A program made the translations under genes and the position numbers. The notes beneath the pieces were generated by a model that was not told where the DNA came from, did no database searches, and was given only the letters and a program-made list of their open reading frames with translations. A stretch of DNA of 9,456 nucleotides from a virus (Duplodnaviria; Heunggongvirae; Uroviricota; Caudoviricetes): the IMG/VR virus record IMGVR_UViG_2534681624_000015, one strand, 5' to 3'. Positions 4,158 through 9,203 of the stretch are shown piece by piece (positions within the stretch are counted from its first letter, which is position 1; each line of letters opens with the position of its first letter).

Positions 4158-4328
4158 ATGATGGTGATAAACATTCACGATAATCTGGGAATCAGTAAGT
4201 TAATCAACCTTGATAATGTCAGTGTAATGGAAACGACTGTTGAGGGTGGTGTTGCTTTTGAATTTATGAAGTATGGGACTCCTTTGCATGTTGTCCGTGG
4301 TGCAGCGTGGTTTTCTTTAAGCAGGTAA
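4158..4328 (+). CDS. Hypothetical small protein (56 aa), not in the supplied ORF track
   Basis: ATGATG start at 4158 preceded by GGAGG (4144-4148) at 9-nt spacing, 7 nt after the kil-like stop; open to TAA at 4326-4328. Translation MMVINIHDNLGISKLINLDNVSVMETTVEGGVAFEFMKYGTPLHVVRGAAWFSLSR. Fills an otherwise uncoded 230-bp gap in a tightly packed operon. Confidence 0.45.
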   Translation: MMVINIHDNLGISKLINLDNVSVMETTVEGGVAFEFMKYGTPLHVVRGAAWFSLSR

Positions 4329-4383
4329 AAGGCGCAAAGGTAAAAGCCAGCGCAGTTATTCAGAATCAATAAGGAGAAACAAA

Positions 4384-4647
4384 ATGGCAAAGGTAATTAT
4401 TGAAATTAAAAATACAGTATCTGGAACTAAAGGACGGCATTTGCGCACCAGTATTGCGGTAGGTGGTAGTGTGGAAATGGAAGGGGATGAGGCTACACTT
4501 GCAGGTCTGGTGGCGTTATTGGTGCTTAACAAAAGCCAGAAAATAATTAATGAGTCAGCTCATGAAGCCATTGAGATTTTGAAAAACGATGGTGTCATCA
4601 CAGGTGGCAGTGTCACTGAAATGGCTGTTGAAAAAACATGTCACTAA
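4384..4647 (+). CDS. Hypothetical early protein (87 aa)
   Basis: Strong RBS AAGGAG 8 nt upstream of ATG; same strand and tight packing as the early operon. No motif recognised. Confidence 0.7.
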   Translation: MAKVIIEIKNTVSGTKGRHLRTSIAVGGSVEMEGDEATLAGLVALLVLNKSQKIINESAHEAIEILKNDGVITGGSVTEMAVEKTCH

Positions 4648-5081: not shown

Positions 5082-5381
5082 ATGGTGACTGACATGAAGT
5101 GTAATCGTAAGCGCTGGTCACGCGAAGACCGGGAATTTATCGAAGCCAACGTCGGGAAAATGACCATTGAAGAAATGGCGGAAAAACTGAAAGTCGCCAC
5201 AACCGCCCTCCGGGCACATGCCAGAAGGCACGGAATATCATTGTGTGTATACCGAATCAGTGAACACGACAAATATTTGTGTCGTGAACTTTATAAAGAA
5301 GGGCTGGATATTCATGTCATTGCCCGAAAGATGGAATTAAGCAATCGGGCTGTATCCAGCATTGTATACAGCGGATATTAA
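5082..5381 (+). CDS. Hypothetical early protein with two HTH-like segments (99 aa)
   Basis: Starts directly after the previous stop (TGAATG). Segments KRWSREDREFIEANVGKMTIEEMAEKLKVATTALRAHARRHGIS and LYKEGLDIHVIARKMELSNRAVSSIV look like helix-turn-helix DNA-binding units (pattern recognition only). Confidence 0.65.
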   Translation: MVTDMKCNRKRWSREDREFIEANVGKMTIEEMAEKLKVATTALRAHARRHGISLCVYRISEHDKYLCRELYKEGLDIHVIARKMELSNRAVSSIVYSGY

Positions 5382-5400
5382 TTAACAGGAGCTTTAATTT

Positions 5401-5925
5401 ATGGCTAAACCAGCAAAACGCATCAAAAGTGCCGCAGCGGCTTATGTGCCACAAAACCGCGATGCGGTGATTACCGATATTAAACGCATCGGGGATTTAC
5501 AGCGCGAAGCATCACGTCTGGAAACGGAAATGAATGATGCCATCGCGGAAATTACGGAGAAATTTGCGGCCCGGATTACACCGATTAAAACCGATATTGA
5601 AACCCTTTCAAAAGGCGTTCAGGGATGGTGTGAAGCGAACCGCGACGAACTGACGAACGGCGGCAAAGTGAAGACGGCGAATCTTGTCACCGGTGATGTA
5701 TCGTGGCGGGTCCGTCCACCATCAGTAAGTATTCGTGGTATGGATGCAGTGATGGAAACGCTGGAGCGTCTTGGCCTGCAACGCTTTATTCGCACGAAGC
5801 AGGAAATCAACAAGGAAGCGATTTTACTGGAACCGAAAGCGGTCGCAGGCGTTGCCGGAATTACAGTTAAATCGGGAATTGAAGATTTTTCCATTATTCC
5901 GTTTGAACAGGAAGCCGGTATTTAA
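5401..5925 (+). CDS. gam: Gam, host-nuclease inhibitor / DNA-end-binding protein (Ku-like), 174 aa
   Basis: 174-aa ORF with RBS AGGAG at 9-nt spacing. Sequence MAKPAKRIKSAAAAYVPQNRDAVITDIKRIGDLQREASRLE... matches my memory of Mu Gam, and the length is the same as Mu Gam. Confidence 0.9.
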   Translation: MAKPAKRIKSAAAAYVPQNRDAVITDIKRIGDLQREASRLETEMNDAIAEITEKFAARITPIKTDIETLSKGVQGWCEANRDELTNGGKVKTANLVTGDVSWRVRPPSVSIRGMDAVMETLERLGLQRFIRTKQEINKEAILLEPKAVAGVAGITVKSGIEDFSIIPFEQEAGI

Positions 5926-6023
5926 TACCACCATTAATATTTAATTAATTCACATTCTTTTAATTATGGCGCGATGCGTCAGGGGATTGCTCGCGCCTGA
6001 AACAGATTACTGAGGAATAAAAC

Positions 6024-6563
6024 ATGGTTGATGCAAAAATTCTGAATGGTGTCAGCATATTATTACGGGCTTACGGGCGCCTGACCTGCGGAGTTCTGGC
6101 TGAAAAAATGAATATGCTGCCCTCGTCAATGGTGTATTTCCTGCGTGATGCGGTTGATGCCGGAGTGCTCACCGAATGCAACGGATTTTATGACGTACCG
6201 CGTCCCCGTACAGAGCCGCCTGTAAGACGAAACGCAACTGAGCAGCCTGCTGTTGATGATGCGGTGTGGTGCAACTGGCGTCGCTCATTACCCTGGGTGG
6301 AAGGTAATACCATCCCTGCGCTGGCAAAAGAGTTTGCGACAGGCGTACTGACCTGTGAGTCAGTTCACATCGTTGCAGAAGTGGATGACGAGATGTGCAA
6401 ACAGGGAATGCCCCGTTTTGTGATGGCTTATATCGATATCTGGCTGGGGCGGTTTATTTGCAGTTCAGGCGCCTGGAATATCACCGACCATGTACTGCGT
6501 TATCTCATCATTGATTTTTCATCAGCACCGGGTGTGGTGCAGGAGGCTGGTTGTGAAATTTGA
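6024..6563 (+). CDS. Hypothetical early protein, N-terminal winged-helix-like segment (179 aa)
   Basis: RBS GAGGA 7 nt upstream of ATG. N-terminal LLRAYGRLTCGVLAEKMNMLPSSMVYFLRDAVDAGVLT resembles a wHTH recognition unit. Its stop overlaps the start of the next gene. Confidence 0.7.
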   Translation: MVDAKILNGVSILLRAYGRLTCGVLAEKMNMLPSSMVYFLRDAVDAGVLTECNGFYDVPRPRTEPPVRRNATEQPAVDDAVWCNWRRSLPWVEGNTIPALAKEFATGVLTCESVHIVAEVDDEMCKQGMPRFVMAYIDIWLGRFICSSGAWNITDHVLRYLIIDFSSAPGVVQEAGCEI

Positions 6564-7249: not shown

Positions 7250-7561
7250 ATGAATAATGGTGTATTTTCAAAATCAGAAGAGCTTGCCGCCCTGCTGATT
7301 GCCGGTGGTTTGCCGAAAAAAGAAGTGCATGACTTTGTGAGTTTTGTATATGAGTCGTCTCATGAAAAAGCTATTGATGAAGTCATGGCGTACCGGTTTG
7401 GCATTATTGCTGAGTCACTGAGTCCTCACTGGATTATTGAAAATCTCCGCACTATTGCTGATGGTAACAATAAAGTGGCGGCTGTCGCCGCCCTTGATGC
7501 GCTGCAACGTATGAACAGGGAACTATTCAATCCCGAGTTTCTTTTTAAGAAACGAGGTTAA
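7250..7561 (+). CDS. Hypothetical early protein (103 aa from ATG 7250; GTG 7235 alternative)
   Basis: ATG at 7250 follows the upstream stop (TGAtATG) with GGTGA 6 nt upstream. No motif recognised. Its 3' end overlaps the 3' end of a convergent minus-strand ORF by 39 bp. Confidence 0.65.
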   Translation: MNNGVFSKSEELAALLIAGGLPKKEVHDFVSFVYESSHEKAIDEVMAYRFGIIAESLSPHWIIENLRTIADGNNKVAAVAALDALQRMNRELFNPEFLFKKRG

Positions 7562-7939
7562 CCACTGTTTGCCGACGTCTGTTACGAGCGTCATCGGGGC
7601 GTCGGCAAGGTCCTGTTTTATGCGCTCAAGAATGGGTTTTTGATGTAGTGCTTTCGCAAAATCATGACCATCTTGTGTAAGTCTGACACTGGTGCCTGAA
7701 TATGAATATCCGAGGCTTGTTGGGGTGAGACCAATGCTTTTTGCGGTGCCTGTTTCCAGATATCTGTTGCTGATAAAACCATTTTCAACCAGCAACAGAA
7801 GATGGAAAACCAGCTTCTGATGGCTGTCGCTGTGCCGCTGAGAACAATCCCAGCCGACATCTTCCAGTCGAATGAATGCGGTGTCGGCCTCCAGAAAAAC
7901 ATCAAATATTCTGGCTATCTCGTCATAATCAATTTTCAT
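7523..7939 (-). CDS. Reverse-oriented hypothetical protein (138 aa), possible small winged-helix-like phage accessory protein
   Basis: Only ORF of 60 aa or more covering 7562-7801 on either strand apart from a shorter minus-strand ORF in another frame. Minus-strand ATG at 7937-7939 preceded by AAGGA at ~7-nt spacing; non-repetitive, balanced composition. Segments KLVFHLLLLVENGFI and RLTQDGHDF and the C-terminal KKKLG recall a small phage-associated domain family of unknown function (DUF2513-like, from memory, unverified). Confidence 0.55.
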   Translation of the reverse strand: MKIDYDEIARIFDVFLEADTAFIRLEDVGWDCSQRHSDSHQKLVFHLLLLVENGFISNRYLETGTAKSIGLTPTSLGYSYSGTSVRLTQDGHDFAKALHQKPILERIKQDLADAPMTLVTDVGKQWLTSFLKKKLGIE

Positions 7940-8912: not shown

Positions 8913-8937
8913 AAAGCCGGTTAATCCGGCTTTTTTT
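8913..8937 (+). terminator. Rho-independent terminator ending the early operon
   Basis: AAAGCCGG (8913-8920), loop TTAAT, CCGGCTTT (8926-8933), running into a 7-T tract (8931-8937), 6 nt after the mor stop. Corresponds in position to the Mu early terminator. Confidence 0.8.
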
Positions 8938-8984: not shown

Positions 8985-9203
8985 ATGGGTAAAGGCTGGA
9001 ATGCATCCTTTCATCTTGGCAGACGTGAGCGGCTGCATCAGGAGGTTTTGCACCGTGTCGCCGGTGGGCCACGGCCTGCGCCCCGCGACTATACCGGTCA
9101 TGATGGCACCCACGGCAGTTATTACATGAAAGGCTGGCAGTCAGTTGATATGCCGGAAATTCTTCATCATTGCCTGCTTTACAGGGAGAAACATTATGTC
9201 TGA
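8985..9203 (+). CDS. Hypothetical protein (72 aa), first ORF after the early terminator
   Basis: ATG at 8985 with GGGGGA 7 nt upstream; stop overlaps the start of the next ORF (ATGTCTGA). His/Arg-rich; no motif recognised. Confidence 0.45.
   Translation: MGKGWNASFHLGRRERLHQEVLHRVAGGPRPAPRDYTGHDGTHGSYYMKGWQSVDMPEILHHCLLYREKHYV

Follow-up and report, generated by a model that had tools for sequence, protein, structure and literature searches.

Between malE and malF lie REP sequences, which are reportedly mRNA-stabilising intercistronic hairpins, and the intercistronic region of papB and papA is said to contain an RNase E processing site. In phage lambda, the nutR/tR1 region comprises boxA, a spacer and the boxB hairpin, with rutA and rutB flanking boxB. 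'Boundary sequences' have reportedly been found at the module junctions of lambdoid phages, and in Mu-like phages the Mu-gpT-DE motif, a candidate structured RNA, is located downstream of gpT.

Here we describe an element, apparently not described before, in the gap that follows gam in the early operon of Mu-type phages. The interval carries no annotation in the curated record of Mu, the reference transposable phage, in which the space between gam and gp11 is bare, though ribosome-binding sites, promoters and TransTermHP terminators are listed elsewhere; the gap and its hairpin are likewise unannotated in the records of D108, SfMu and Yersinia Mu-like phages. A literature search covering the gam-gp11 element, Mu early mRNA processing and transcript-end, half-life or mutational data found nothing. 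Our analyses show that the gap is a real, conserved cis-acting element of Mu-type early operons.

Results

Layout of the gap between gam and gp11

The window, by which we mean the whole stretch of 9,456 nucleotides that was analysed, is the left end of an E. coli Mu-type prophage. Positions 5300-6550 are approximately 96% identical to Mu, and D108, SfMu and Yersinia Mu-like phages are among the related matches. Several complete E. coli chromosomes contain the 138 bases around the gap with 100% identity. The features of the region are collected in Table 1. At the DNA level gam is 96% identical to Mu gam, as annotated in AF083977, and its stop codon is the TAA at 5923-5925. Mu has a gap of identical size, 98 bp (gam at 5801-6325, gp11 from 6424), and its record annotates a ribosome-binding site at the equivalent place before gp11.

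Table 1. Positions in the window of the element and of the genes on either side.
Feature	Position	Strand	Basis or remark
gam (host-nuclease inhibitor)	5401..5925	+	174-aa ORF; gene upstream of the element
AT-rich, G-free spacer	5926..5967	+	Contains ATTAAT and AATTAATT
Covariance-model match, full extent	5954..6009	+	Model R1, 73.6 bits, E = 6e-16
GC-rich imperfect hairpin	5968..5997	+	Fold and arm conservation
Conserved 3' tail TGAAACAG, consensus GAAWNCAG	5998..6005	+	Alignments
Next gene: Shine-Dalgarno GAGGA (6012-6016) and ATG (6024-6026)	6012..6026	+	
Mu gp11 homologue, first gene of the variable accessory block	6024..6563	+	Pfam Gp11_C, E = 1.8e-37

The original prediction had counted 98 bp between gam and the next ORF, described this as unusually long, and put all other gaps of the early operon at 40 bp or less. 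The length is borne out, with the stop codon ending at 5925 and the ATG beginning at 6024, and the gap is indeed the longest non-coding interval among the packed plus-strand genes, from ner to the ORF that ends at 7561. The limit of 40 bp does not hold, given 55 nt at 4329-4383 and a plus strand that is free of ORFs from 7562 to approximately 7966, where an ORF lies on the minus strand.

The ORF at the position of Mu E5 (window 4158-4384) has 56 aa as against 76 aa in Mu, an arrangement that differs from that of Mu, and it leaves the 55 nt (4329-4383) before the next ORF. The minus-strand ORF, of 138 aa, is located at 7523-7939, and past its end comes a hairpin that resembles a terminator, with a T-rich tail (7492-7477). 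The segment 7477-7939 matched none of the known Mu-like phage records and gave no Pfam or PADLOC hit; it has the look of a moron, a gene inserted in reverse orientation into the semi-essential region, at the place occupied in Mu by gp13, gp14 and Mu_54. According to the Mu record, the 105-bp gap ahead of gemA contains a known promoter. A classical terminator, with an 8-bp stem followed by TTTTT, stands directly after mor at 8913-8933 in the window, and corresponds to the annotated terminator at 9179-9200 in Mu, at the end of the early operon.

Spacer and hairpin

Within the gap, the prediction had placed AT-rich palindromes ahead of a hairpin of the form GGCGCGA-N16-TCGCGCC with no T-tract downstream, and each of these can be read in the sequence. 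ATTAAT is found at 5933-5938 and AATTAATT at 5943-5950; the arms of the hairpin, at 5968-5974 and 5991-5997, form an outer stem of 7 bp with 16 nt between them; and the 10 nt that follow (TGAAACAGAT) contain two T, which, as the prediction had held, is not the form of a classical terminator. The spacer also has TAA stops in all three frames (5935, 5942 and 5946) and a pyrimidine tract, TTCTTTT, at 5955-5961. The 16-nt 'loop' is itself partly base-paired and conserved in sequence, 5976-5978 pairing with 5988-5990 and 5979-5980 with 5985-5986 beneath an apical loop of AGGG.

Both a folding-energy calculation and a comparison of the hairpin across Mu-like phages, proposed with the original prediction, were carried out. 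Folding of the hairpin core yields -17.4 kcal/mol (z = -2.64), a value equalled by one of 200 dinucleotide shuffles, and the fold of the whole gap has z = -1.94; the antisense strand of the hairpin folds nearly as well, at -15.4 kcal/mol. Conservation across Mu-like phages was clearly positive: all variant types give an imperfect hairpin of 9-13 bp with an energy of -13 to -20 kcal/mol, capped on its long stem by an apical loop of AGGG, GGG or GUGG, and the apical motif GCGYCRKGG, together with GGCG/CGCC, is near-invariant across very divergent phages.

Base changes within the stem are few. U-A takes the place of the pair C5972-G5993 both in types C and D and, as an independent change, in a Pantoea prophage with a Mu-like stem background, and one locus (L060) has a U.G intermediate at this pair. 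In shuffle tests, covariation across the long hairpin was not significant with 19 sequences and mixed with 32; covariation support is weak, and the stem is conserved mostly as sequence. The sense strand has 14 G.U pairs and the antisense strand 3; of the two folds, that of the sense strand is the stabler in 14 of the 22 variant types. This strand bias may be taken to favour, mildly, a structure in sense RNA over a palindrome in DNA. GGCGC (5968-5972) pairs with GCGTC (5976-5980) as readily as with GCGCC (5993-5997), 98.8% of cells being compatible, and a small 5' hairpin of 5968-5972 with 5976-5980 was considered on that pattern; it is not supported, having no covariation and an energy of -6.8 versus -17.4 kcal/mol for the long hairpin.

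An ORF of 15 codons, MARCVRGLLAPETDY, runs from the ATG at 5966 to the TGA at 6011-6013, crossing the hairpin and ending inside the Shine-Dalgarno sequence of gp11. It lacks a Shine-Dalgarno sequence of its own, types B, C and D do not have its ATG, and the substitutions in Mu are non-synonymous; it is probably not coding. In the 3' coding end of gam, TTATTCC (5894-5900) is complementary to GGAATAA (6014-6020) in the Shine-Dalgarno region of gp11, and ATTTTTCCAT (5885-5894) is complementary to ATGCAAAAAT (6031-6040) in the early codons of gp11. This pairing of the gam 3' end with the start of gp11 appears in the MFE and centroid folds, yet is neither significant nor general across the variants.

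Distribution and interchangeable neighbours

In Mu, D108, SfMu and the Yersinia phage the gap is near-invariant up to approximately 8 nt past the 3' arm; beyond the hairpin tail, homology ends where the downstream gene differs. For an unbiased sample, 165 loci were collected by Gam protein similarity, and the element is present in every complete locus in which Gam is at least 70% identical; below this level it is found in single lineages, with Gam 63% and 66% identical. When viral contigs were scanned by pattern, the element was located also after Gam proteins that are only 54-57% identical, and, in the same AT-rich context, in Mu-like phages that have a DUF3164 gene at the position of gam. 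Such a DUF3164 protein is encoded upstream of the element in the enterobacterial Mu-like phages L168 (3550-4167), L239 (6601-7211) and L208 (5149-5826), and its placement suggests that DUF3164 is a positional counterpart of Gam. In one Pantoea prophage, two small ORFs intervene between gam and the element.

Across 150-odd loci, three gene families precede the element and at least eight unrelated families stand behind it, among them gp11-like genes, a small zinc-ribbon-like protein, an acidic 90-aa protein, a MazG-like protein (by sequence appearance) and a family that apparently includes the DUF5420-type gene of SfMu. A gene of the DUF5420 family is located exactly between the element and the gp11 homologue in SfMu (L003, 1017-1571) and in Yersinia phage vB_YpM_3 (L004, 1024-1572), and leaves only 3 nt before the next gene. 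To judge from these arrangements, the site just 3' of the hairpin tail behaves as an insertion point for promoter-less genes. The distance from the hairpin to the ATG is 12-26 nt in the 22 variant types, most commonly 23.

Covariance model R1 has its sole significant match in the window at the element, and a single match, at 6354-6409, in the 36.7-kb Mu genome; a dispersed repeat or a second phage copy was rejected on the strength of this one copy per phage genome. The element occurs in 90 of 5426 complete E. coli genomes, those of strains KO11FL (NC_017660) and 2014C-3075 among them, at one to three places in each, and adjoins gam in all of the records listed. It is a linker retained between interchangeable upstream and downstream genes.

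Purifying selection

Diversity was measured per site across 41 distinct sequences whose Gam is identical at 89% or more. It reaches 0.197 at gam third codon positions, as against 0.062 in the AT-rich spacer, 0.072 in the hairpin loop, 0.000 in the 5' arm and 0.007 in the 3' arm. Since these values are far below that of gam third codon positions, the whole gap, and the arms above all, is under purifying selection. The AT-rich spacer is itself constrained; in the 22 variant types its sequence varies and its character stays, with 82% A+T and 1.4 G per 32 nt before the hairpin, and in 20 of the 22 each of the three frames contains a stop.

Analogous hairpins in other lineages

Among 90 representative loci, the 100-nt bin after gam was in the top three for local folding in 21, where approximately 7.7 would be expected. 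A second hairpin family, unrelated to the first, is located 11 nt after gam, at 1892-1915 in L062 and at 2037-2060 in L065 and L066, and occurs in phages with Gam approximately 63% identical. Its stems, GATGGCG/CGCCATC or CAGCCCG/CGGGCTG, represent four compensatory pairs, and its conserved loop, TTAAAYMTAG, is not followed by a U-tract. Non-homologous hairpins at the same place in other lineages, the second family and the ranking above included, point to a U-tract-less hairpin right after gam as a recurrent Mu-like design.

Terminators and known RNA families

A partial terminator was among the roles first suggested for the hairpin. As an intrinsic one this is unlikely, because at most three U occur in the 10 nt after the hairpin in 22 of 22 variant types, with a mean of 1.8. 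A full intrinsic terminator was rejected on either strand, for a stable GC stem-loop is present but the U-tract is missing; the minus strand is A-rich after its hairpin. A terminator and promoter scan of the window flagged nothing in the gap at 5926-6023, and the curated Mu record has no TransTermHP terminator at the hairpin.

In a search of Rfam 15, no family overlapped the hairpin even to an E-value of 10 and nothing in the window attained a gathering score, so that a known RNA family was rejected for the element. Variants of the Mu, B and E types have GGA both in the loop and in the Shine-Dalgarno sequence, with 30 nt separating the two in the window; the loops of the C and D types (GUGGGGUU and GUGGGCUU) are without it, and these two types tell against a CsrA site. 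A lambda-type nut site was rejected, as boxA, a GNRA-like boxB loop and an N-like protein are all missing. The best approximation to the boxA consensus (CGCUCUUA) is TTCTTTTAA, and a search for a small arginine-rich (N-like) protein common to the element-bearing phages found none.

Discussion

The element exists as a single copy under purifying selection, holds a fixed place between variable genes, and is neither a classical terminator nor a promoter. Its retention as a unique cis element, regardless of the flanking genes, argues for a role at the level of the operon. Our leading interpretation, which we hold tentatively, is that it may be an intercistronic RNA boundary, in which an RNase E-type entry site is combined with a protective hairpin, between the transposition/Gam block on one side and a swappable accessory block on the other. 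According to this proposal, Mu and the enterobacterial phages related to it would have in their early (Pe) operon an element made of a G-poor, AU-rich spacer of approximately 40 nt, a GC hairpin and an 8-nt tail, placed directly 5' of the ribosome-binding site of the next gene, whichever gene that may be. The unstructured AU-rich spacer would allow entry and cleavage by an RNase E-type endonuclease, and the hairpin would form a barrier that either caps the downstream fragment at its 5' end or stops 3' exonucleases. The lifetime and translation of the transposition/Gam message could in this way be uncoupled from those of the accessory block, from gp11 onward to gemA and mor.

RNase E prefers single-stranded AU-rich RNA beside a stem-loop, and the composition of the spacer fits this preference. 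A boundary in RNA is favoured by the sense bias of G.U pairs, the composition of the spacer, the want of a terminator tail and the comparable hairpins that other lineages have at this place; read-through of the element would be expected, since mor lies downstream in the same early operon. Action of the element in RNA, the involvement of RNase E and an effect on message stability are our inferences. Against this reading stand the weak covariation of the stem and the nearly equal fold of the antisense strand. The invariance of stem and apex exceeds the needs of a simple stability hairpin and points to sequence-specific recognition. The spacing of 12-26 nt to the start codon, which a pure decay barrier does not need, hints at a role in translation.

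The strict conservation of stem and apex sequence makes a sequence-specific site for a host or phage factor, whether recognised as an RNA hairpin or as duplex DNA, a serious rival to the RNA boundary, although we judge it somewhat unlikely. A protein binding site and an RNA processing or stability element were both among the roles first suggested for the gap. The factor would regulate the accessory block or a DNA transaction, through the pentamers GGCGC, GCGTC and GCGCC. Since the first segment pairs equally with the second, it follows that three similar pentamers are conserved, and the stem and GCGYCRKGG are almost invariant among phages with Gam 54-100% identical or with DUF3164 in its stead; compensated variation is confined to a single stem position, and the diversity of the arms is about zero. 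Against such a site, none of the phage proteins tested co-occurs with the element as a partner and the genes just upstream vary, while the loops of types C and D lack GGA; were the site duplex DNA, the G.T 'pairs' of the inner helix would be purposeless. One candidate, a gp9-like HTH protein, was rejected as a dedicated partner as it is missing from 46 element-bearing loci. To our knowledge, the motif is not a recognised MuA, repressor, Ner, IHF or CsrA site.

A variation on this theme, which we regard as unlikely, is that the element is a docking site for a host or phage factor, consisting of nut-like or operator-like RNA or of the three GCGYC pentamers, and that in the early operon of Mu-like phages it would define a fixed 'slot', with promoter-less accessory genes being exchanged and jointly regulated behind it.

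We consider it improbable that the element is a transcription signal, that is, an RNA polymerase pause, a Rho-dependent attenuator or a nut-like antitermination site, that would set the level of early transcription into the accessory genes and mor. The succession of U-rich box, spacer and GC hairpin loosely resembles lambda boxA-boxB, the spacer is untranslated, has stops in all frames and contains 13% C versus 4% G ahead of the hairpin, and terminator-like sites are present downstream in Mu, at 7839-7873 and 9179-9200. However, the hairpin has no U-tract and no TransTermHP terminator in the Mu record, the G-poor stretch of 30-45 nt is short for a rut site, and a boxA consensus, a GNRA-like boxB loop and a shared N-like protein are missing.

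Just as little likelihood attaches to a translational operator, whereby the hairpin would hold pyrimidine-rich RNA from upstream, or else the 3' end of gam, against the Shine-Dalgarno sequence, or the G-rich loop would serve as a standby or decoy site. The hairpin stands 12-26 nt before the start codon whichever gene follows, TTCTT (5956-5960) as well as the TTATTCC of gam can pair with the Shine-Dalgarno region, and loops that resemble a Shine-Dalgarno sequence are kept (GGGG, GGAG in Mu and GAGG in L006). Yet the pairing of flanks to the Shine-Dalgarno sequence is no better than that of shuffled flanks (mean z = -0.47), the probability of pairing between the Shine-Dalgarno sequence and upstream RNA is 0.48 versus 0.39 in shuffles and exceeds the control in 12 of 22 types, and the fold of 176 nt has z = -0.99. 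Sequestration by the upstream flanks or the gam 3' end was rejected in that shuffles do as well.

Homology between phages with different neighbours begins and ends at the edges of the element, as it would if the latter were a functionless linker, either a relic of the recombination that shuffles modules between Mu-like phages or a site at which it takes place. Such a linker would decay, whereas the arms are at least 25-fold, and the spacer approximately 3-fold, less diverse than synonymous sites and the element persists in lineages with Gam only about 55% identical; this signal of selection makes a neutral recombination scar highly improbable. Scarcely credible, lastly, is the internal promoter that had also been proposed, in which the AT-rich spacer would drive the accessory genes with the palindrome as operator: AT-rich DNA does lie upstream of the palindrome and offers the weak hexamers TTTAAT (5940-5945) and, 16 nt on, AATTAT (5962-5967), but the scan found no sigma-70-like site in 5926-6023, inspection of the 22 types found no legally spaced -35/-10 pair in the gap of the window or shared among them, and a start 7 nt past AATTAT as the -10 would fall within the 5' arm.

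If the element does determine how stable, or how well translated, one half of the early message is relative to the other, this would explain how a single promoter can yield widely differing quantities of transposition/Gam and accessory proteins, and also why accessory genes are swapped precisely here. For practical purposes, the element is a recognisable marker of the border between the conserved and variable parts of the early region in Mu-like prophages, as well as a compact, testable target.

Comparison with known systems

With lambda nutR the element shares its setting in the early operon of a phage and its order of parts, in which a pyrimidine-rich box precedes a short GC hairpin whose loop is rich in purines; it differs in having no boxA consensus, boxB loop type or N-like protein, and in its distance of approximately 5 kb from the promoter. 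Like Mu-gpT-DE, it is a conserved non-coding motif of hairpin type that is specific to Mu-like phages, but Mu-gpT-DE belongs to the late region, whereas our element is found elsewhere, has another sequence and receives no hit from Rfam.

The papB-papA region resembles the element in having an AU-rich, single-stranded intercistronic segment, and its message reportedly yields segments of differing stability. In the Mu element, by contrast, a conserved hairpin comes directly after the AU-rich segment. The REP sequences of malE-malF offer a GC-rich imperfect palindrome of approximately 30 nt, without a U-tract, in a polycistronic operon, where a block to 3' exonucleases, as would be expected of our element, sets the relative expression of neighbouring genes. 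Set against the definition of REP/BIME repeats, the element has the imperfect GC-rich palindrome (~35 nt) and a place in an intergenic region that is presumably transcribed, given the known Mu early operon, and does not have the many chromosomal copies. REP is a dispersed host repeat, whereas the Mu element is single-copy and phage-specific; its sequence is conserved far beyond structural need, an AU-rich spacer under constraint precedes it, and the next start codon follows at a fixed distance.

Finally, like the boundary sequences of lambdoid phages, the element is a short conserved intergenic sequence between non-homologous genes in related phages; unlike them, it has a structured core and is under measurable purifying selection.
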